From positions 1-11,373 of the IMG/VR virus record IMGVR_UViG_2654587772_000004: a stretch of DNA of 11,373 bases, one strand, 5' to 3'. A program made the translations under genes and the position numbers. The notes under the pieces are model-generated. The model worked only from the letters and a program-made list of their open reading frames with translations, did not search any database and was not told the DNA's origin. This document shows, piece after piece, positions 1-11,373 of the stretch (the stretch's first letter is position 1; each line of letters begins with the position of its first letter). This DNA is from a virus. Its lineage: Duplodnaviria; Heunggongvirae; Uroviricota; Caudoviricetes.

Positions 1-1158
1 ATGCCGTCTCCACGATTCCGCATCCGCAAAATGACTCTCTCCCGCGCCCTGGACAAATACCTGAAAACCGTCTCCGTACACAAAAAAGGGCACCTTCAGG
101 AGTTTTATCGCGCGAATGTCATCCGACGCTACCCCATCGCACAGCGTTTCATGGACGAAATCACCACCGTGGACATCGCCGCATATCGCGATATGCGACT
201 CGCTGAAATTAATCCCCGGACCGGAAAAGCCATCACCGGCAATACCGTCCGTCTCGAGCTTGCACTGCTCTCGTCGATGTACAACATCGCCCGGGTCGAG
301 TGGGGGACATGCCGGGATAACCCCGTTGAACTGGTGCGTAAGCCCCGTGTCTCTCCGGGACGGGAACGACGTCTGACGTCTTCGGAAGAACGCAGGCTTT
401 CCCGCTATTTTCGTGAACGCAACATGTCCCTGTATGTCGCCTTTCATCTCGCGCTGGAAACCGCCATGCGACAGGGCGAGATTCTGTCACTCCGCTGGGA
501 ACACATTGACCTGCGACATGGTGTGGCTCACCTGCCGGAAACAAAGAACGGGCATTCGCGCGATGTGCCTCTCTCCCGCCGGGCGCGCAACTTCCTCCAG
601 ATGTTGCCTGTGGCGCTGCATGGCGGGGTCTTTTCCTACACCTCTTCCGGCTTCAAAAGCGCCTGGCGCATCGCCACACAGACCCTGCGCATTGAAGACC
701 TGCATTTTCACGACCTGCGCCATGAAGCTATCAGCCGTTTCTTTGAGCTCGGCAGCCTCAACGTGATGGAAATCGCTGCAATATCCGGCCACCGCTCAAT
801 GAATATGCTCAAACGCTACACACATCTCCGTGCCTGGCAGCTGGTCAGCAAGCTGGATGCCCGTCGACGCCAGACGCAGAAGGTGGCCGCCTGGTTTGTT
901 CCTTACCCCGGACACATCACCACTGACGACGGGCAGACAGTGAGAATTGATATCTGCGACTTCGACGACCTGTCCGTGACGGCGGCAACCCGGGAGGAAG
1001 CCCTGTCCCGCGCCAGTGAGGTACTGCTGCGGACACTGGCCATCGCCGCCCAGAAAGGTGAGCGCGTTCCGGCCCCCGGTGCACTCCCCGTCAATGACCC
1101 GGCGTTCGTCATGGTCTGCCCTCTGAATCCGCAGGGTGCCCTGACCGCACAGGTATAA
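1..1158 (+). CDS. Tyrosine-type site-specific recombinase/integrase (385 aa) with a ~110-aa C-terminal extension beyond the catalytic Tyr; size and layout resemble Rci-type (shufflon-specific) recombinases
   Basis: Long ORF starting at window position 1. Box I motif ...[23 protein letters not shown]..., box II ...[42 protein letters not shown]... (His-x-x-Arg and catalytic Tyr). About 110 residues follow the Tyr, which is atypical for lambda/P2/Xer integrases. Rci-like assignment is from memory only. Confidence 0.8.
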
Positions 1159-1176
1159 TGCATAACGCATACAAAG

Positions 1177-1197
1177 AGCGAGTCGCAACGACTCGCT
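1177..1197 (+). terminator. Perfect 9-bp stem / 3-nt loop hairpin (AGCGAGTCG-caa-CGACTCGCT) 19 nt after the recombinase stop; possible terminator or protein-binding dyad
   Basis: Inverted repeat read directly from sequence; no U-tract follows on the + strand, so intrinsic-terminator function is uncertain. Confidence 0.3.
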
Positions 1198-1301
1198 TAA
1201 CACATTCGATCTGCATGATCGAAATTACTCGTTTCACCACAAAAAAATGAATCGGTAAAATAACCTCATGAACTGAAAGATGTTTTTCAGGCGGAGACGT
1301 A

Positions 1302-1670
1302 ATGAAACTGAACACAACCGGCATAGCAGGTCAGCTGATGCTCTCGCTCGACAGAGACGTGATTGCCGAAAAGCTCATCCACGACCGCAGAATCAACCCC
1401 ACGCCGTTGCAGGTCCGCTACCCGCAGGGCGTCCGGGATGTGCTCGTCATGATGAGCGAACAACTGGCGATTTCTGTGGCCGATTTAACCCGTATCCTGC
1501 TTGAGGACACGCTGCACAACATGTTCCTGCCCGCCGGCAATGCCGCCGGTACCGTGGCAGAACGCCTTGAGCTGCTCATGCAGGCACACAACCTCACCGC
1601 GACAGAACTGTCGTCTCTGCTGTCGCCCTGGAATATCCGCGCCTCTGTTCTTCGGGAGCCGGAAAACTGA
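1302..1670 (+). CDS. Hypothetical protein (122 aa as written); the frame would continue to about 1873 (~190 aa) if one A were added to the A4 run at 1663-1666
   Basis: GGAG ribosome-binding site 6 nt upstream of ATG 1302. Stop TGA at 1668-1670 sits just after an AAAA run, and the +1 frame stays open to TAA at 1871-1873. No family recognised from memory. Confidence 0.5.
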   Translation: MKLNTTGIAGQLMLSLDRDVIAEKLIHDRRINPTPLQVRYPQGVRDVLVMMSEQLAISVADLTRILLEDTLHNMFLPAGNAAGTVAERLELLMQAHNLTATELSSLLSPWNIRASVLREPEN

Positions 1671-1867
1671 CAGACTGGCTGTCCCCTGACGCTCTGGGCT
1701 GGCTGGCAGACTGCTTCTGCGTCAGTCCGGACTGGCTGAGCGGGCGGGAAAGTTATCCTGTCGCCCGCGCGGGTGAATGGCCGGACAATGCAAATGCATT
1801 CCGGAAACTCATCAGTGACGAAAAAAATACGGATATTATTTTCTGGCACGGTTTTCCCGTTTGCCGG

Positions 1868-1969
1868 AAATAATGCCAGAGAATATTGCGGTGTGATATT
1901 GCGGCAATGCACACACGTAAATAATGCCAGAATATTCCCGGTACTTTCTTTATTACCGGTGGCAATGAC
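1868..1969. repeat. Imperfect tandem direct repeat (~45-50 bp units, 2 copies) in the intergenic region upstream of the outer-membrane protein gene
   Basis: Unit A 1868-1912 (aaataatgccagagaatattgcgg...gcggcaatgcac) and unit B 1919-1969 (aaataatgccagaatattcccgg...ggtggcaatgacag) share the AAATAATGCCAGA(G)AATATT head and a GGCAATG tail. ATATTnCCGG-like submotifs also occur at 1882, 1896, 1931, 1951 and 2081. Confidence 0.5.
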
Positions 1970-2218
1970 AGAAGAAATTAATTTGTGGTTCTCAGGTGCC
2001 CTGAAAAGCAGGAAGCTGCCTGTGATGCCCCGGGCTGTATCCCTGCGCCCTGCTGCCGCTGAGGCACTCATTGCAGGAAGAATATTACCGGCACTCTGCC
2101 TGAACAGCGATTTATTGCCCTGGTAAAAAAAAACCGGGCAAACCAGCAGTAAAAAAATAATGGCACTTCGTGTCACGGGACTGTGTTGTCTTAAATCCGG
2201 AAAACAGGAAATTAAAAA

Positions 2219-3424
2219 ATGCAGAAAAAATATATTTCGCGCACGCTGATTGCTTCCGCCGTTTTATTTTCTTTTAATGCGATGGCAGCAACTTCATATT
2301 TTGAAGCACGCAATGATTGCAATGGGTGGCACCGGGGTGGCATCCTCCCATTATGGTGTGGCTCCTCTGGCAAACCCGGCTTTACTGACAAAGCACAACA
2401 GCAATGATGATTTCAGCCTGTTACTGCCGTCCGTGGGCGCACAACTGTCAGACCCGAACGACATCGCTAACAAAGCCGATGACATTCAGGACGACTGGGA
2501 TTGCCTTCGACCGCGCGGTCGACAGCAATTACGGTGTTGACCAGGCAGCGGCAAACCTGGAGACAGCGCCTGCTGGAGTTCCGCAATATCCACGCTGATG
2601 CGCAGGTGGGTGTTTCTGCCGTTGCGGCACTGCCGAATGACACGCTGCCGGTTGCCCTGATGGTGAAATCCTACGGTACGGTCAGCGTTGACGGCAAAGT
2701 CAGCGACGCCGATCTGGACTATCTGGAGAAAGTCGCCAACGGCACAATCACGGATGTGGACAAAAACGCGCTCACCTCCCGCGCGTATGGTCGTGCCGCA
2801 GTGGTCACTGATGTGGGTATTTCCTTTGCAAAAGAACTGGAAACCGTCGGTCAGAAATGGTCACTGGGCTTCACCCCCAAATACCAGCGCGTGGACCTGT
2901 TCAACTACAACGTCTCCGTGCGCGATTACGACAGCAGCAACTTTGACGGCGACAAATACCACAACACGAAAAACGGCGTGAACGCCGACATCGGGGCATA
3001 CACCGACCTCGATGACAACTGGACGCTGGGTCTGGTTGCGCAGAACCTCATTTTCCGCGCAGCATCGACACGAAAGTGGTCGACGGCGTGAAGGAACCTA
3101 CAGAATCCGTCCGCAGGCCACTGCCGGTGTGTCCTGGCACAACGACCTGTTCAACCACTGCACTTGATGTTGACCTGACGCCGGCCAGCGGATTCACCTC
3201 CGACAGCAAACGTCAGTTCGCCAGCATCGGCGCAGAATTCAACGCCTGGAAATGGACACAACTGCGTGCCGGTTATCGTCAGAACATGGCGAACAACAGT
3301 GGCAGCGCATTCACGGCAAGGTGTCGGAATTTCACCGTTTGATGTGGTTCACCTGGACATCGCCGGTCTGGTCGGTACTGACCATGACTACGGTGCGATG
3401 GCCCAGCTGCAGTTCACCTTCTGA
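2219..3424 (+). pseudogene. Outer-membrane beta-barrel protein gene (possibly FadL/OmpP1/TodX-like transporter family) disrupted by at least four frameshifts
   Basis: Good ribosome-binding site (AGGAA, 8 nt before ATG 2219). Signal peptide MQKKYISRTLIASAVLFSFNAMA. N-terminal ...VAPLANPALLT (NPA-type hatch motif) and C-terminal ...GAMAQLQFTF ending in Phe, typical of beta-barrel proteins. The reading frame hops between all three + frames (ORFs 2219-2407, 2250-2540, 2404-2598, 2501-3091, 3076-3342, then the frame ending 3424). Family assignment is tentative. Confidence 0.5.
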
Positions 3425-3474
3425 TGAACATGCCCCCCGCTCCCGGGGGTATTCTGCAACTGAACTGACAGTTA

Positions 3475-3926
3475 TGCGTATCCTCAAAAATCGCTTTCAT
3501 CTTGTGCTGGCAGGCGTCTCACTCGCGATCGTGTGTTTCCTGTACTTTTCGGCCCGCCATGTACCGGAAATATCCCCGGATGCCGTGGCCGAACGCAGTC
3601 ACTCCGCCCGTATTCTGATCCTGATTCGACACGGGAGAACGTTGTGACCGCTCCGACAATCCATGCTCAGCCGGCCCTTCCGGCATTACCATTCCCGGTG
3701 CATATCGTGGCGTGGAAATACGGAACACAGTTCAGAAAGCACATACCGTTGTATGCCCTGTACGCCACGGGATACCGTCAGAACAATACAGACAGCCCGT
3801 TACTTTGGCAGACAGGAAGCTCAGGTCATTAAAGCACTGGGATATTGTGATGAACGCCTGCTCCCGCTTCTGAGGTCATTATCAGAAAGCACGCAGGAAG
3901 GCGTTTCCGTTATTTTTCACGCATAA
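3475..3926 (+). pseudogene. ais/pmrG-like periplasmic histidine phosphatase (LPS core heptose(II)-phosphate phosphatase family) gene with about three frameshifts and a 3' truncation
   Basis: N-terminal membrane/signal segment MRILKNRFHLVLAGVSLAIVCFLYF. RHG motif (ILILIRHG) followed, after a 1-nt shift at ~3636, by ERCDRSDNPC...GITIPG, then ...DTVRTIQTARYFG... and ...VSVIFHA in other frames. These match my recollection of E. coli Ais (…FRHAERCDRSTNQC…GITVKG…NTVRTIQSATWF…NIVIFTHNH…). The ORF stops where the homolog would continue for roughly 40 more residues. Confidence 0.55.
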
Positions 3927-4837
3927 TCACAGCCATCGTGTCGGCCAGCACCTGCGCGGTGCGGGTGTAGTTTTCAAAGAGGAACAGCGGGTCATCAGAG
4001 CAGGTACGGTTACCCCAGAAGCGGAAACCGTCGCGGCGAATCAGCGTAGTGACGCCTGACTCATTAAGCAGGTCAGCATCGGTGCCGGACTCCTGCAAAT
4101 CCCAGAATACAGAGGCGCTGATGCCGGTAACACCGTTCACCCCGACGTTGGACAGCGTTTTATGCCAGCCCTGCTCCTGGTCGATTTTAGCGCGCAGACC
4201 CAGCGCACGGGCGGTGGCATACGCGGTGGCGGTGGTACTGGTGACCGTATCCCATGCGAGGAAATCCGGCCAGATGACCATCAGCTCACGCTGGCTGAAA
4301 TTCTGGCGGTAGGCTTTCACCTCGGAAATGGTCTTACAGCCCCATGCGCTGATATATCCGAAAGCGCGCAGCTTCTGACAGACTGATGCCAGTGCAACAG
4401 CCACCTCTTTGGTGTCCAGTCCCGGCACGCCGAGAATACGCGGTTTAACACCGGTAACAGACTCCGCCGCCAGCAGGGCTTTCAGTCCGGTGTACTGACC
4501 GTTTTCGTCGGTGGTGCCGATGATATTGGAAACAGTCTGCGCGAGTTTCGTTTCCTCGTCGTCGCCGGTGCCGTCTTCCACACGCACGACAAACGGTGAC
4601 CGGTTTTGACTGGTCGGCGATGGCCTGCAACGATGCCGCCAGCGTGCCTTTTTTACCGGCCTTTGCAATTGCGCTCTGCACATTGGTAATCAGCACAGGT
4701 TTATTGAGGGGGAAGGTTTCCGCATCCGCATCGCTGGCCGTGCAGACCATGCCGACAATGGCAGTGGATACGGTGGAAATGACGCGGGTGCCGTCGTTAA
4801 TCTCCAGCACCTGCACGCCGTGATGATAGTCACTCAT
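3910..4837 (-). pseudogene. Phage tail sheath protein (P2 gpFI-like), frameshifted at ~4590 and 3'-truncated
   Basis: N-terminal ORF (4445-4837) [57 protein letters not shown]...QSKPVTV is sheath-like. The frame then shifts at an AAA/TTT run (~4590-4592) into ORF 3910-4683 (...[18 protein letters not shown]...[18 protein letters not shown]...). Total about 309 codons versus roughly 390-400 for P2-type sheaths. GGAG ribosome-binding site upstream of the ATG at 4835-4837. Confidence 0.85.
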
Positions 4838-4896
4838 CCGTTTAACTCCGTGGTTAATGGGTGAGTGATATTTTCAGTTGTGCCGGAGATGTCAGG

Positions 4897-5490
4897 CTAT
4901 TTGTCCCGGTTGGCTAAGGGATGACACAATTTATTCTTTATCGCTGATGAGGGAAATTTTTTATAGAGCGTGGACAGGCCAATATCAAAAATCAGTGCCA
5001 CGCGTTGACGTGACTCCCCTGCAGCCAGCAAACGCCCGACCTGCTCCCACTCACTCGTGGTGAGTTTAGGACGTCTGCCACCAATACGACCTTTGGCTCT
5101 GGCCGCTTCCAGCCCGGCCCGAGTCCGTTCGACAATGAGTTCTCGTTCCATTTCAGCCAGGGCACCCATCACATGAAAGAAAAAACGCCCCATCGGCGTG
5201 CTGGTATCAATAGCATCTGTCAGGCTGCGAAAATTAATGCCGCGTTCGCGCAGTTCCTCAACCAGAATGACCAGATGCCGCATACTACGCCCCAGCCTGT
5301 CCAGCTTCCAGACTACCAGAGTGTCACCTGCTGATAATGTTCTGAGCAGTTTTTTCAGCCCCGGTCGGTCGGACTTCGTGCCGCTGATTTTATCCTCAAA
5401 AATCAGCTCACATCCTGCGCACTCGAGCGCGTTACGCTGCAATTCCGTGTTCTGGTCATTTGTTGATACACGAACATAACCTATACGCAT
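4897..5490 (-). CDS. pin: Serine DNA invertase of the Pin/Gin/Cin/Hin family (197 aa)
   Basis: MRIGYVRVSTNDQNT... (catalytic Ser in GYVRVSTNDQ), resolvase core ...LVVWKLDRLGRS..., ...MGRFFFHVMGALAEMERELIVERT..., C-terminal helix-turn-helix ...ALIFDIGLSTLYKKF... Lies next to an invertible tail-fibre segment. AGGGA ribosome-binding site 6 nt upstream of the ATG. Confidence 0.92.
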   Translation of the reverse strand: MRIGYVRVSTNDQNTELQRNALECAGCELIFEDKISGTKSDRPGLKKLLRTLSAGDTLVVWKLDRLGRSMRHLVILVEELRERGINFRSLTDAIDTSTPMGRFFFHVMGALAEMERELIVERTRAGLEAARAKGRIGGRRPKLTTSEWEQVGRLLAAGESRQRVALIFDIGLSTLYKKFPSSAIKNKLCHPLANRDK

Positions 5491-5651
5491 AAAAATCCCT
5501 ATAAAAACAGAATAATGACACAGAATTATCTATATATGTACAAGCGGACAAGGCTATGGAGCTCTCAGTTACAGTAATCTTGCTGGATAAGAATATTTAC
5601 TGATAGTGGATACATAGCCCACTTAGCATTCCCATGTGAAACAAATAAGTA

Positions 5652-5660
5652 TGGTAAGAT
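5652..5660 (+). promoter_or_regulatory. Candidate extended -10 element (TGgTAAGAT) for the 5689-6006 ORF
   Basis: Sequence tatGGTAAGAT about 30 nt upstream of the ATG in an AT-rich stretch; no strong -35 identified. By-eye prediction only. Confidence 0.25.
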
Positions 5661-5688
5661 AGGTTGACCTCAATAAAAGGAAAATCTG

Positions 5689-6006
5689 ATGAACATCGAT
5701 ACCAATAAAAAAACTACCACACTGAAATATTTTGTCGAAGCCTATCCAGAGAGAATCACTGTTCAAGCGTGGGAACGCCTAGTCAATGAAATTGGTGATT
5801 TAAAAGAAGTTTATGGATATATCGCCTTTCTGCATGACGATGGGTATCTTACAGGAAAGGTAATCTTCGATGGTTCTCCTGAAAGTATTGATGGATGGAG
5901 TGTAGATACTGCCTCTCTAAGGATTACATCACAAGGTTATCATTATTGGAAAAAATTAAACCCTACAACACAAGGGAGTAGCGGAATCCTCAGAAGGAAC
6001 AGATAA
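5689..6006 (+). CDS. Hypothetical 105-aa protein of unknown function encoded in an AT-rich insertion (moron) between pin and the invertible segment
   Basis: Intact ORF with AAGGA ribosome-binding site 7 nt upstream of the ATG. Region 5491-6132 is visibly AT-rich (roughly one-third G+C by eye) against >50% G+C flanks. Followed by a 14-bp-stem hairpin. No signal peptide or transmembrane segment. No family recognised from memory. Confidence 0.65.
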   Translation: MNIDTNKKTTTLKYFVEAYPERITVQAWERLVNEIGDLKEVYGYIAFLHDDGYLTGKVIFDGSPESIDGWSVDTASLRITSQGYHYWKKLNPTTQGSSGILRRNR

Positions 6007-6012
6007 CTAATA

Positions 6013-6044
6013 AAGATGGTAGCACCATTTGGTGTTACCATCTT
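6013..6044 (+). terminator. Stem-loop (14-bp stem with one G-U pair, 4-nt loop) 7 nt downstream of the 105-aa ORF stop; putative terminator
   Basis: AAGATGGTAGCACC-attt-GGTGTTACCATCTT read directly from sequence. The downstream tract is A-rich rather than U-rich on the + strand and T-rich on the opposite strand, so it may act bidirectionally or weakly. Confidence 0.4.
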
Positions 6045-6132
6045 AAAATATACCGTTACAATCAGCACTTTCCATTTTTATCTAACAATCAATACTAGGA
6101 CACTCCCTTCTTTCAACATCATATTTAACCGA

Positions 6133-6158
6133 TTCCATAAAACGTTGGTTTGGGAGAA
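6133..6158. promoter_or_regulatory. Left crossover site (hix/gix/pix-like 26-bp site) of the invertible tail-fibre segment
   Basis: TTCCATAAAACG-TT-GGTTTGGGAGAA. Its inner half-site GGTTTGGGAGAA matches the inner half of the right site at 11/12 positions in inverted orientation, and the overall 12-2-12 architecture resembles hixL (TTATCAAAAACC-TT-GGTTTTCAAGAA). Confidence 0.75.
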
Positions 6159-6644
6159 GGTTCTGCGTTGCCTGTTGGCATACCAGTTCCTTGGCCTTCA
6201 GCTACGCCGCCAACAGGCTGGCTGAAATGCAACGGGGCTGCTTTTTCGGCTGAAGAATACCCGGAACTGGCAAAGGCTTACCCGACAAATAAATTGCCTG
6301 ATTTACGTGGTGAGTTTATTCGTGGCTGGGATGACGGGCGGGGGATTGATACAGGTCGCTCTATTTTAAGTATTCAGGGGTATGCAACGGAGGATCATGC
6401 TCATGGATTACCGTCAAGATCCACGATTGTGACTGATGCAACGATTAATTTCTATTTTGATGAAAGCTGGGTAAATAGTGGCACTGACATTATCAAAAGA
6501 GGAAACACAAACGATGCTGGATTACCAGCACCGGATTATGGAACCTTTAAAACATATAAACAATCAGTGGCTGGTTTAGGTGCCGCAGCCTCAGAAACGC
6601 GTCCGCGTAATATTGCATTTAACTATATCGTGAGGGCAGCCTGA
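6147..6644 (+). CDS. Alternative tail-fibre C-terminal variable segment (Sv'-type), promoterless and start-less in the present orientation
   Basis: Open frame begins immediately after the crossover core with no ATG (the ORF track uses TTG at 6150). C-terminus ...AGLGAAASETRPRNIAFNYIVRAA resembles the ends of Mu S / P1 S-type fibres (from memory). After inversion it would fuse in frame to the constant part of H (...AGLLAYLG-LGEGSALPVGIPVPWPSATPPTGW...). Confidence 0.75.
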   Translation, partial: GLGEGSALPVGIPVPWPSATPPTGWLKCNGAAFSAEEYPELAKAYPTNKLPDLRGEFIRGWDDGRGIDTGRSILSIQGYATEDHAHGLPSRSTIVTDATINFYFDESWVNSGTDIIKRGNTNDAGLPAPDYGTFKTYKQSVAGLGAAASETRPRNIAFNYIVRAA

Positions 6645-7246
6645 TGCATAAAGCAATATTAAATAGTGAGCTCATTGCAACAAAGGCAGGGGATGTTACC
6701 GTTTATAACTATGATGGTGAAACACGGGAATATATTTCCACTTCAAATGAATATCTTGCCGTTGGTGTCGGCATTCCGGCATGTTCCTGTTTAGATGCCC
6801 CTGGCACACATAAGGCTGGTTATGCAATCTGCCGTTCTGCAGATTTTAACTCATGGGAATATGTGCCAGACCATCGCGGTGAAACGGTCTATAGCACCGA
6901 AACAGGAGAATCAAAAGAAATCACCGCTCCGGGTGATTACCCTGAAAATACAACCACTATCGCCCCATTAACGCCATATGATAAATGGGATGGTGAGAAA
7001 TGGGTGACGGATACCGAGGCACAGCATAGCGCCGCAGTAGATGCAGCAGAAGCACAGCGCCAGTCGCTGATTGATACTGCAATGGCTTCCATCAGTCTGA
7101 TTCAACTGAAATTGCAGGCCGGACGTAAACTGACGCAGGCAGAAACAACCCGGCTTAACGCTGTGCTGGATTACATTGACGCGGTGACGGCAACAGATAC
7201 CAGCACCGCGCCGGATGTCATCTGGCCTGAACTGCCGGAGGCGTAG
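6644..7246 (+). CDS. Tail-fibre assembly chaperone (Tfa / Mu U-like), partner of the alternative fibre segment
   Basis: 200-aa ORF whose ATG overlaps the upstream stop (TGATG). C-terminus ...LNAVLDYIDAVTATDTSTAPDVIWPELPEA shares the conserved Tfa C-terminal motif with the convergent gene at 7218-7670. Confidence 0.8.
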   Translation: MHKAILNSELIATKAGDVTVYNYDGETREYISTSNEYLAVGVGIPACSCLDAPGTHKAGYAICRSADFNSWEYVPDHRGETVYSTETGESKEITAPGDYPENTTTIAPLTPYDKWDGEKWVTDTEAQHSAAVDAAEAQRQSLIDTAMASISLIQLKLQAGRKLTQAETTRLNAVLDYIDAVTATDTSTAPDVIWPELPEA

Positions 7247-7670
7247 GCCATTCAATATCTGGTGCACTGGAGGTATCAACCAGCTCCAGTGCATCCAGAT
7301 AATCCAGCCACAAATTATATTGCGCCAGTTCCTCACCTTTCAGACGACCAATAGCGGCTTTACCGGGCCATTGCTTACTGTTCATGTATTCGTTGGCCTG
7401 GTTAATTAGTAGCTGTCTTTCTGATTCAGTAATTTCAATAAGCTCTTCATGCGTGGGTGGAGGAATATCTGCCCACGCAGGCAGCCCATCATCTCCGGCA
7501 ATACGGATTTTTCCTTGTGGCGGTTCAGCCATAAACTCACTGATAATATTTTGATTTACTTCCTTAGCGTCTGATAAATCCCATCCCTCTGATTTATATT
7601 TATCAATCATATCCACAGGGAAAAAAGCATTATGCCTTGCGCTATAAACATATTCGTTCATATAAATCAC
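7218..7670 (-). CDS. Tail-fibre assembly chaperone (Tfa / P2 gpG-like), partner of the currently expressed fibre
   Basis: 150-aa ORF directly downstream of the fibre gene on the minus strand. C-terminus ...LWLDYLDALELVDTSSAPDIEWPTPPAVQAR. The 3' ends of the two convergent Tfa genes overlap by 29 bp (7218-7246). Confidence 0.8.
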   Translation of the reverse strand: MIYMNEYVYSARHNAFFPVDMIDKYKSEGWDLSDAKEVNQNIISEFMAEPPQGKIRIAGDDGLPAWADIPPPTHEELIEITESERQLLINQANEYMNSKQWPGKAAIGRLKGEELAQYNLWLDYLDALELVDTSSAPDIEWPTPPAVQAR

Positions 7671-7681
7671 CCTGAATAAAA

Positions 7682-8881
7682 TTACTCACCAACAGCCCAC
7701 CAACTGTAATTCATCGATACCGTGTCGCTGGTTGATGACGTTCTGTAAGCAGAATTAAAGCCGGTTAACGTTGGGCCTTCTGCAGTCATCACGAACCCTC
7801 GCCCAGCGCCTAAAGGCGCACCGCCATCACCAGAATGAGTAAGCATGGCGCAGTCCGCTTTTTTGGGGAAAGGGATGCTGAATGTAATTCTCATTGTTTG
7901 CGTCGATAATGTCGGCGTAACCGCACCACGACCATATTGCAGGATTTTCCCGTTGGGTAATTTCATCCATCCATCACCACTGGCAAAAGAGGCCATGTCC
8001 GGTATCTGATTTTCCCCTGTCCCCACATCCCGTTTTGCCGCTTCTCTCAAACCAAGGTATGCGAGAAGACCAGCTACATCCTTTCCACTCAAATGAGTCA
8101 GCGTCTCATCCAGTGGCTGCTTACCTGACAGCGCATTGTTAATGGTGGTGCTGAATTTCGGGTCATTGTTAATGGCCGCGGCAATTTCTTTCAGTGTGTC
8201 CAGTGTGGCTGGCGCACCGTTAATCAGAGCGGTAATAGCGGCCTGAACAAACTCAGTGGTCGCAATCCGCGTGGTGTTATTTCCTGCGGCAGGCGTCGGC
8301 GCTTTTGGTTCTCCGGTAAATGTCGGATTATGTTTCTGCGCATACTGGGTATGAGGATCCTGTGCGGCAATGTGGTTTCTCATCTGGTCATCCACATACA
8401 GCTTTAATTCCAGGACTTCATCATCCACGTATTTACGGGTCGCCAGTACCACCGACGGGTCGATTTTCAGCGTGATAGCTTCGGTATTCGTGACAACCAG
8501 AATCATGCGGATAGTCTGGGTACGACCACTGCCTTCCTGCAACTGCGGTTTGTACGTTTCCGGGCAGTTCGCCACCGCAATGAGTACGCCTTCATCATCA
8601 TAAAGCCCAATCTCACGGATCCAGAATCCGCCCTCGTTCTCAGGGATGATTTGCTCCGCAATAATCTGGCTCTGGTTGTTCGGGTCAACACTCAGAAGAT
8701 TCAGCGGCGCGATGCGTTTCTGGTTAATCAGTTTTGTCTGTGCCGGGTCTGGTGTCGGCAAGACACCATTCGCATCACCAACGGCCATTTGCGTCAGATT
8801 CAGCTTACTGCCGAGCATCGTCGCGTTAGCCAGCCGTGCTGCGCCCTGATTAGTCAGAATGGCGTAGTATTTCACTGTCAT
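7682..8881 (-). CDS. Phage tail fibre protein (P2 gpH-like), 399 aa; constant N-terminal part (~275 aa) plus the currently joined variable C-terminal part
   Basis: Lies between the baseplate gene and the Tfa gene in the canonical P2 order. Its ATG overlaps the upstream gene's stop (ATGA). Contains the right crossover site at codons ~272-280 (...AGLLAYLGLREAAKRD...). Confidence 0.85.
   Translation of the reverse strand: MTVKYYAILTNQGAARLANATMLGSKLNLTQMAVGDANGVLPTPDPAQTKLINQKRIAPLNLLSVDPNNQSQIIAEQIIPENEGGFWIREIGLYDDEGVLIAVANCPETYKPQLQEGSGRTQTIRMILVVTNTEAITLKIDPSVVLATRKYVDDEVLELKLYVDDQMRNHIAAQDPHTQYAQKHNPTFTGEPKAPTPAAGNNTTRIATTEFVQAAITALINGAPATLDTLKEIAAAINNDPKFSTTINNALSGKQPLDETLTHLSGKDVAGLLAYLGLREAAKRDVGTGENQIPDMASFASGDGWMKLPNGKILQYGRGAVTPTLSTQTMRITFSIPFPKKADCAMLTHSGDGGAPLGAGRGFVMTAEGPTLTGFNSAYRTSSTSDTVSMNYSWWAVGE
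8042..8067. promoter_or_regulatory. Right crossover site of the invertible segment, located inside the tail-fibre gene
   Basis: Top strand TTCTCTCAAACC-AA-GGTATGCGAGAA; bottom strand TTCTCGCATACC-TT-GGTTTGAGAGAA. Shares the core dinucleotide and the conserved inner half-site with the left site. Confidence 0.75.
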
Positions 8882-9489
8882 GCGTTTACTCTCAGGTTAT
8901 CAATTAAATGAATGGCCGAGGCCGGGAAATAATCCCCTCCGACAATAATGGCCTCCGGGGTGTAGGGATAAACCGTCAGGGCGTCGCCGTGATAGCATCC
9001 CGCACCGGCAAAAATGTTGCCGGTTGTACTTAAACTGATAGCCAGTCCCGTCAGATGGCGGCTCGCCGGTTTTGCATCAGCAACGAGGCGCTCCAGCTCC
9101 TGATACATTTCTTCGGTAATACCCTGCTCAAGCACGCCAACAACGATACGGAACGTCCCCGGCTCCTCGTTGAGCTGCCACCACTCCCTCACCTCAATCA
9201 GATAGCCGAGCGGCTCCACCACACGCCGGATTGCACCTATAGTGCCTTTATGACAGTGAATGAAATACGCATCGCGGATAACAGCGCGTTTTGTCGCTTC
9301 CGGCCACTTATCATCCCAGCGGTCAACCGAAAATGACCACGCCAGCCACGGCAGCAGATTTGCCTGGCAGGTATCCGGGTTCCACAGTTCACGAATACTG
9401 ACCGGCGTTTTTTCAATTTCCGCACAGGCTTTTGCGGCGGCGACTTCAAGCGGTGATGAGCCGGTCGGCAGCAGGCGCGAATCACTCAT
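8878..9489 (-). CDS. Phage baseplate protein, P2 gpI-like (203 aa)
   Basis: MSDSRLLPTGSSPLEVAAAKACAEIEKTPVSIRELWNPDTCQANLLPWLAWSFSVDRWDDKWPEATKRAVIRDAYFIHCHKGT... matches my recollection of P2 gpI; synteny J-I-H; translationally coupled to H. Confidence 0.85.
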   Translation of the reverse strand: MSDSRLLPTGSSPLEVAAAKACAEIEKTPVSIRELWNPDTCQANLLPWLAWSFSVDRWDDKWPEATKRAVIRDAYFIHCHKGTIGAIRRVVEPLGYLIEVREWWQLNEEPGTFRIVVGVLEQGITEEMYQELERLVADAKPASRHLTGLAISLSTTGNIFAGAGCYHGDALTVYPYTPEAIIVGGDYFPASAIHLIDNLRVNA

Positions 9490-10389
9490 CCGAGCCTCCG
9501 GTCACGACGCGGTATTCGGTGCAGAAAGACGCCTGCGTGCTGTTAAGCACGATATCGGCCAGCGGTGCAGCCAGTTCGACACGCTGCACGCCTTCCACAT
9601 GCAAAGCGGCATAAATGGCAGACAGACGGATGTCGCGCCCCAGCCGGTGCTGTGCCGTGACGTACGCTTCCAGTTTTTTCACGGCGGCGGCGCGGATGGG
9701 TTCGCTTTCGGGACCAGGGTAAAGGTAAAGCGTGGCGTTTATCTGGTATTCAACGATGGCGGCAGACTGCACGGTCACGCGGTCGGCCACCGGCCTGACG
9801 TCCTCGCCATTAAGGGCGTTACGCACCACCGCCAGCAGGTCTTCGGATGCGACACCGTTATTTTCACGTGACAGCACAGAGATGGTGACGCAGGCCGGAG
9901 AAGGACTGGTGACAGAGATATCCGCGACACGCCCGTCGGCACTTCGACCATGATACTGATAGGCCCCACCGACCCGGCGACGCTTAAACCTTCAAACGCC
10001 TGCTGAATACGCAGACGATAATCGGTGTCAGACTCCATCACTGCCGGTGTCGGCGGGATAGTCGAATCATCTGCCGGGGTGATAATCAGGCGCGTGGTGT
10101 TGTAATTGGCACCAATCACATCAAGGTCATTACCGGCGGCACAGGCCAGCATCACCGCCCGTGCGGCCTCATTCACACGCTGACGCCAGATAAGCTCACG
10201 ATAAGCATTTTCCTCCAGCAGTTTGACGAGAGGCTCGGATTCCAGCGTCAGGGTACGGGCGACCGCCTCCTGCTGGTCTTCCGGGTAAAGGGAAATCAGT
10301 GTCGCCTTGCGTTCGGCAAGAATGGTTTCAAAGTCCAGCTCCTCGACCACATCCGGTGCGGGTAGCTGGTTCAGGTCGATAATCGGCAT
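9482..10389 (-). pseudogene. Phage baseplate assembly protein J (P2 gpJ-like), split by a single-nucleotide frameshift in a G/C run at ~9964-9967
   Basis: N-terminal ORF 9775-10389 (MPIIDLNQLPAPDVVEELDFETILAERKATLISLYPEDQQ...SVAGSVG) and C-terminal ORF 9482-9877 (...SRENNGVASEDLLAVVRNALNGEDVRPV...YRVVTGGSDE) are both gpJ-like. In the +1 frame across the junction the sequence reads GAYQYHGRSADGRVADISV..., so adding one G to the GGGG run would restore a single ORF. Confidence 0.8.
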
Positions 10390-10393
10390 GGTT

Positions 10394-10741
10394 TCAACTC
10401 ACAGGGATGGTTAACGAAAGTGGCTGGCCGGTGTCGTTGTGCTGGCCGGTTAACGTGACCGTCATTCGCCCGTCAAAACTGCGCTCAGTGGTGACGGATG
10501 ACAGGGTGACGCGGGGTTCCCATTTCAGCACCGCCATGTAACAGGCGACCTTAATCTGCAACTCAAGCGCCGGGGTCTGCGGCTGGTCAATCATTGACTC
10601 CAGCAACGAGCCGTAATCACGACGCATCACCCGTGAGCCGACCGGTGTGCGCAGGATATCGCCGATACTCTGGCTGATATGCTCAAGGTCAGTGACAGTC
10701 AGGCCATCACTGCGATTCATTCCGAGATAACGCGCTGTCAT
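10394..10741 (-). CDS. Phage baseplate wedge protein, P2 gpW / T4 gp25-like (115 aa)
   Basis: Size, position between V and J, and sequence (MTARYLGMNRSDGLTVTDLEHISQSIGDILRTPVGSRVMRRDYGSLLESMIDQP...) typical of gpW. Start overlaps the stop of V (ATGA). Confidence 0.85.
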   Translation of the reverse strand: MTARYLGMNRSDGLTVTDLEHISQSIGDILRTPVGSRVMRRDYGSLLESMIDQPQTPALELQIKVACYMAVLKWEPRVTLSSVTTERSFDGRMTVTLTGQHNDTGQPLSLTIPVS

Positions 10742-11373
10742 AGAGGACTCCCGGTTGTGCCGCCGCTGTCGCCGGGGTGTTTATGGGTATGCAGTACCTT
10801 ACCGTTTGATGAGAGTTCACCGCCGGTGTGTTCAATGTTGCCGCGCATCGTCCCGCCCTTCTGCACTTCCAGCGTGCCGGTAATCAGCCTGTTGGTGCAG
10901 ACCACCTCCGGTGTGTCCAGGGTGACGCGGGTTGATGCTTTCACCGTGACCACCGGCACCGTGGCAGTAACAGAATCAGAAGCCGTCACGCTGGCCGTTT
11001 TAATTCCGCTTACCGTGAGTGCACTGGTTTCGGGTTCATACTCAATCACCGCCCCGTCAGGGAAACGGATATGCAGGGCATCCGCCGACGCAGACGGCGC
11101 GGGGTTATCGCCGGAATAAATCCCCGGCAGAACAAACGCCGTGTCAAGTTCACCGCCCACGGCCAGAATCAGCACCTGCTCCCCCACGGAAGGTGCCCAC
11201 CATGTGCGCGAACGCCCGGCACGACAGGTCAGCCACTGAAGCCAGTCGGTGCACATGCCGCCGGTCTGCACACGGCAGCGACCGGCGTTAAGGTCGGTTT
11301 CGATGATAATGCCGGTGCGAATCATGTTGCGCAGTGCGCGCGCGAGTTCCTGAATATTTGCGAGAGTGTTCAT
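10738..11373 (-). CDS. Phage baseplate assembly/spike protein, P2 gpV-like (211 aa)
   Basis: Full ORF whose ATG is the last three bases of the window (reverse strand). Sequence (MNTLANIQELARALRNMIRTGIIIETDLNAGRCRVQTGGMCTDWLQWL...) and position upstream of W fit gpV. Confidence 0.85.
   Translation of the reverse strand: MNTLANIQELARALRNMIRTGIIIETDLNAGRCRVQTGGMCTDWLQWLTCRAGRSRTWWAPSVGEQVLILAVGGELDTAFVLPGIYSGDNPAPSASADALHIRFPDGAVIEYEPETSALTVSGIKTASVTASDSVTATVPVVTVKASTRVTLDTPEVVCTNRLITGTLEVQKGGTMRGNIEHTGGELSSNGKVLHTHKHPGDSGGTTGSPL

Follow-up and report, generated by a model that had tools for sequence, protein, structure and literature searches.

Frame-broken traF and truncated traG beside P2-like prophage DNA: a probable assembly artefact from an I-complex plasmid

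The frame-broken gene pair at positions 2219-3929 of the window (the whole stretch of viral-record DNA analysed, 11,373 nucleotides) was identified with high confidence as traF plus codons 1-150 of traG, both from the transfer region of an R64-like I-complex conjugative plasmid of Escherichia coli ST2747 or a near-identical strain. This confidence is joint: it covers the plasmid identity, the frameshifts as errors of the consensus sequence and the junction with the phage DNA as an artefact of assembly. Taken separately, sequencing errors very probably account for the frameshifts, and a contig join very probably for the placement of the genes next to phage DNA. The main value of the result is for quality control: the label of pseudogene or of lysogenic-conversion module, as proposed by a first-pass annotation made from the sequence, would carry the artefact into annotation.

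Plasmid and prophage parts of the window

The listing of open reading frames and the family scans divided the window into two unrelated parts (Table 1). From sequence comparison, positions 1-3929 are assigned to the rci–traE–traF–traG' region of an I-complex conjugative plasmid, typed IncK2/Z, and positions 3930-11373 to a P2-like prophage. The two co-directional frame-broken genes described by the first-pass annotation are present at 2219-3424 and 3474-3929. Upstream of them, rci showed no differences from the sister copy (L003) and was collinear with the recombinase gene located 3' of pilV and the shufflon in three of the loci compared (L002, L003 and L005). No Pfam or NCBIfam family was found for TraE (274 aa), yet this protein is conserved across I-complex plasmids. 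On the phage side, the tail sheath gene, cut in the window, was intact in the sister prophage (L004, 396 aa), and the rest of the late region (4897-11373) carried genes for a serine invertase, invertible fibre tips and their chaperones, and the H, I, J, W and V genes.

Table 1. Coordinates and state of the features of the window
Feature	Position	Strand	Remarks
rci, shufflon-specific tyrosine recombinase	1..1158	+	Intact; Pfam Phage_integrase 2.7e-24
traE	1302..2126	+	Frame broken at 1658 (-C) and 1852 (+T); 274 aa once corrected
traF, predicted TraF_2-family outer-membrane beta-barrel	2219..3424	+	399 aa once corrected; 7 indel events
traG', putative Ais/PmrG-family histidine phosphatase	3474..3929	+	Residues 1-150 of 192 only; 4 indels
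Plasmid/prophage junction	3929..3930		Blunt, mid-gene on either side
P2-like tail sheath gene, 5' part	3930..4837	-	About 302 of 396 codons; +A indel at 4591 (vs. L004)
Rest of P2-like prophage late region	4897..11373	-	Pfam hits; no substitutions vs. L004; gpJ -C indel at 9963

In a megablast search of complete E. coli genomes and plasmids, window positions 1-3929 were collinear, at 99% identity, with NZ_CP055049, NZ_CP134667 (typed IncK2/Z, MOBP) and CP057134, and the alignment ran from end to end in the first two. The same DNA was intact between rci–traE and traH–traJ in NZ_CP055049 and NZ_CP134667, and the gene order pilV–shufflon–rci–traE–traF–traG–traH–traI–traJ was that of annotated, typed I-complex plasmids; intact orthologous modules, which the first-pass annotation had suggested looking for, were thus found in both plasmids as well as in the sister assemblies described below. 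The next-nearest plasmid, an independent one, differed from the window by 17 substitutions, and the sister records by none; this places the window in the ST2747 lineage or in one that cannot be told apart from it, and its probable source is the third ST2747 record, CP007392. Other IncK2/Z-typed I-complex plasmids were more distant, with rci–traF about 86% identical at the DNA level to the window segment.

The gene pair itself is already known: an Ais-like phosphatase and an outer-membrane barrel are annotated in the transfer regions of more than a thousand IncI-type plasmids. The IncI1 plasmid pESBL has the same arrangement, and its TraG already bears the annotation of a lipopolysaccharide (LPS) core heptose(II)-phosphate phosphatase. 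Transposon sequencing in pESBL put all three Tra proteins in the non-essential class as regards transfer, at probabilities of 0.93 for TraE, 1.00 for TraF and 0.79 for TraG (PMC4288162); traF and traG are accessory genes, dispensable for transfer in that plasmid.

The traG allele of the window was rare: among 1,440 plasmids with a TraG homologue, 3 carried it at 99% identity or more, and the other 1,437 were below 60%, typically at about 41%. In plasmids with divergent traG, the preceding genes rci–traE–traF stayed about 86% identical at the DNA level up to the end of traF (window position ~3425), a pattern that suggests either an abrupt mosaic breakpoint or rapid evolution of the locus.

Indels, junction and assembly quality

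Two ST2747 records labelled as “chromosome”, CP007393 and CP007394, served as sister assemblies for the comparison. Over the whole window there were no substitutions and 17 indel events of one or two bases. Against CP007393, positions 1-3842 showed no substitutions and 15 indel bases (14 events); against CP007394, positions 934-3929 showed no substitutions and 17 gap bases, among which that at 1073 is a difference of CP007394 itself; and positions 3930-11373, aligned with the yegQ/ogrK prophage of CP007393, showed no substitutions and two indels, one of them in the sheath gene (4591) and the other in gpJ (9963). The seven events in traF were located at 2317, 2501, 2559, 3051-52, 3094, 3153 and 3318, and the four in traG at 3633 (inside the RHGE catalytic motif), 3709, 3769 and 3913; one more was in the spacer (3444), and traE carried, in addition to its two frame breaks, an extra A at 2125 within the A-run at its stop codon. 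The several frameshifts per gene claimed by the first-pass annotation were therefore real features of the sequence, with the amendment that the second gene is also truncated at 3929, and not frameshifted alone.

Thirteen of the events were insertions and four were deletions; all 17 added or removed a base identical to its neighbour, and six doubled a lone base outside any run. Many indels without substitutions, often at non-repeat positions, are the mark of an under-polished long-read consensus. Once the indels were undone, the proteins were identical to the sister TraE (274 aa), TraF (399 aa) and residues 1-150 of TraG. The distribution of the events was strongly non-uniform, as the first-pass annotation had noticed: positions 1-1657 were free of events, 1658-3929 had 15 (6.6 per kb) and 3930-11373 had two (0.27 per kb), so that 15 of the 17 fell in 20% of the window (binomial P = 3e-9). 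The accompanying statement that adjacent phage genes carry no frameshift did not hold, since the sheath gene and gpJ were both frameshifted, and so was traE upstream (1658, 1852). The opposite assignment, of the errors to the sister assemblies and not to the window, was rejected: independent plasmids from Hong Kong and France matched the sisters at every traF/traG indel, with intact open reading frames.

According to the genome announcement, the ST2747 strains are a parent and the two derivatives that three platings yielded. PacBio RS II sequencing with C2 chemistry reached about 28x and left some 14 scaffolds for each strain, and these low-coverage scaffolds were put in order as one “gapless chromosome”. 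A control for consensus quality was available within CP007394, which contains, beside its plasmid fragment, a redundant 4.6-kb copy of the chromosomal pepN–IS1397–ssuB' region: compared with the CP007393 locus, this copy was free of substitutions and had 25 indel events confined to about 2 kb; its pepN was split into at least eight annotated pieces. Each sister record also has a blunt mid-gene joint of its own in this part of the plasmid, and the two differ: ssuB'|rci falls at 934 of the window and traG'|pilP' at 3842.

At the junction of the window, the alignment with plasmid DNA stopped at 3929 and that with phage DNA began at 3930, with no shared bases; traG was cut after codon 150 of 192, and of the 396 codons of the sheath gene about 302 were left. 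Of the 5,426 complete E. coli genomes and 72,556 plasmids searched, none spanned 3929/3930, and exact look-ups of the junction open reading frame (3910-4683) and of the truncated forms of TraE (1302-1670) and of the sheath protein (4445-4837) found nothing either. The prophage was intact in CP007393, where the sheath gene was followed by the tube and tape measure genes, and in CP007394 traG continued into traH–traJ. In 10 related P2-like prophages the sheath gene was likewise followed by the tube gene, and tra genes were absent from this slot in all of them as well as in the CP007393 prophage; the pair had been read by the first-pass annotation as a phage-linked lysogenic-conversion module, a reading that gives way to that of plasmid traF–traG.

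Genuine decay, in which a prophage-linked, envelope-modifying cargo would have been inactivated by many frameshift mutations, was the interpretation favoured by the first-pass annotation. The frameshift density in 1658-3929, 25-fold higher than in the phage part, is in keeping with it, and the loss of TraE, TraF and TraG would be tolerable, given that they are dispensable for pESBL transfer. Against these points, 15 indels occur in 2.3 kb with zero substitutions; the six events that double a single base outside a run are unlike slippage mutation; the frames are intact in the two sister assemblies, which are isogenic, and in independent plasmids; the same signature marks the redundant copy of pepN, a housekeeping gene, and phage genes are hit too; and the supposed cargo is plasmid tra DNA, absent from the 10 related prophages. 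The absence of substitutions, the indels that mimic their neighbours, the intact sisters and the shared pepN signature therefore argue for error and not for decay, which we regard as very unlikely.

A real rearrangement at the junction is unlikely, and the particular form in which the frameshifts would be false and the junction true, a plasmid fragment having entered the P2-like prophage by illegitimate recombination, is likewise unlikely. Such an event would fit the physical presence of the join in the window, the passage of the strains on nitrofurantoin, a DNA-damaging agent, and the good quality of the sequence on the phage side; however, no microhomology, IS end or att-like repeat was seen at 3929/3930, the sisters of the same lineage carry an intact prophage and a traG that runs into traH, and the records of the same project show several other blunt mid-gene joints together with duplicated contigs. 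The position 3929/3930 is most likely, by strong inference, a contig join or misassembly.

As for the origin of the artefact, the frameshifts are probably leftover consensus indel errors from part of an early PacBio assembly where coverage was low, and the abutment at 3929/3930 probably arose when contigs were concatenated, or chimerically assembled, into a pseudo-chromosome. The joints and the duplicated pil genes would then be the expected look of concatenated contigs from a circular plasmid heterogeneous in its shufflon. One observation counts against this explanation: the dense errors are confined to the plasmid side, with one indel in the first 6 kb of phage DNA, which departs from the symmetry expected if two low-coverage contig ends had simply met.

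The RefSeq “complete chromosomes” CP007393 and CP007394 contained concatenated plasmid contigs, duplicated pil genes and an indel-ridden pepN (L001, 3253-7835; L003, 7734/7735). Annotations taken from these records call for caution.

TraF and TraG proteins

The first-pass annotation of the upstream gene as an outer-membrane barrel was borne out. Judged from its sequence, TraF belongs to the TraF_2 family of outer-membrane beta-barrel proteins: intact TraF from NZ_CP055049 (L002) matched TraF_2 (PF13729) with 244.9 bits vs. a cut-off of 25 (E 1.1e-72), and the indel-corrected TraF of the window was identical to the sister copy in L003, which is ~99% identical to L002 at the DNA level. The protein has a signal peptide (MQKKYISRTLIASAVLFSFNAMA/A), a C-terminal Phe and an NPA motif (N52 P53 A54) that was invariant across TraF homologues. 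Similarity to PorV_fam was weak (3.4e-14), and the Pfam profile of FadL/OmpP1 (Toluene_X), the family to which the first-pass annotation had pointed, gave no TraF match even at E <= 10. As regards the fold, an AlphaFold model built from 23 homologues (mean pLDDT 61, pTM 0.58, residues 1-76 below 50) had TodX, TbuX and FadL as its best Foldseek matches in the PDB (E 4e-7 to about 1e-6, TM 0.44-0.48), and PorV and BamG were also among the matches. TodX, TbuX and FadL are 14-stranded outer-membrane channels, and PorV is part of type IX secretion; TraF differs from the FadL family in having no Pfam FadL match, and the TM-scores were only about 0.45 in a model of moderate to weak quality. A FadL-like barrel is a plausible candidate fold for TraF on this model. 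No solved-structure relatives of TraF or TraG were found by sequence.

TraG (192 aa) belongs, as far as its motifs and family scores indicate, to the Ais/PmrG subfamily of histidine phosphatases, in agreement with the first-pass annotation. It passed the cut-off of the NCBIfam PRK15416 subfamily (172.5 vs. 142 bits) and matched Pfam His_Phos_1; the cut-off of the NCBIfam PmrG equivalog was failed (91 vs. 170 bits). Identity to K-12 Ais was 37% over 165 aa (E 1e-41), with RHGER and THNH conserved. In E. coli and Salmonella, Ais/PmrG is a PmrA-regulated enzyme, encoded on the chromosome, that removes phosphate from the LPS core Hep(II), an activity described for PmrG in PMC8129183; it shares with TraG the fold family of histidine phosphatase branch 1, the RH(G/A)ER and THNH motifs and a hydrophobic N-terminus. 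The genetic context is different: ais of K-12 adjoins arnB, whereas the TraG gene lies in a plasmid tra operon and not next to the arn (pmrHFIJKLM) operon.

By analogy with these relatives, TraG may be membrane-anchored or periplasmic and may dephosphorylate a substrate in the envelope, for example heptose II of the LPS core. TraF would be inserted in the outer membrane as a barrel; the hydrophobic N-terminus of TraG would anchor or export the protein, and the histidine of its RHG motif would strip phosphate from the envelope substrate, as in the analogy with PmrG. It is an improbable and speculative proposal that intact traF–traG, 3' of the shufflon and rci, form an accessory module for LPS-core remodelling, made of a FadL/PorV-like barrel and an Ais-family phosphatase. 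If this were true, the module would alter the donor surface met by the LPS-binding PilV adhesins, with, for example, less donor–donor aggregation or a tuned choice of mating pairs as the effect, and the diverging traG alleles (~41% identity, with traF about 86% identical at the DNA level) might track the LPS type of the host.

An Ais-like open reading frame, 42% identical to TraG, was also present in Escherichia phage GER2, an Stx1 phage (MG710528; L009, 6001-6489), between an Rz-like lysis gene and the packaging genes; this was one of 50,697 phage records. Phage-borne Ais homologues exist, though they are unrelated to the window.

Fibre region and neighbourhood of the P2-like prophage

The prophage part of the window included an invertible tail-fibre region (4897-8881), with a serine invertase gene on the minus strand (4897-5490) and alternative fibre tips and Caudo_TAP chaperones encoded on both strands. 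A scan of the fibre segment for inverted repeats gave weak pairs only. Within this region, an open reading frame of 105 aa (5689-6006) was AT-rich (37-42% GC) and had no Pfam family; its position was conserved in many P2-like prophages, and its look-up returned normal P2-like prophages only.

Directly after gpV, just past position 11373, the sister prophage carried a gene with an adenylate/guanylate-cyclase domain (L004, 13545-14270). In a related prophage the same slot was occupied by a cyclase gene together with a PycTM gene (L016, 15713-17615), a pair resembling an anti-phage system of the Pycsar type at a P2 hotspot.
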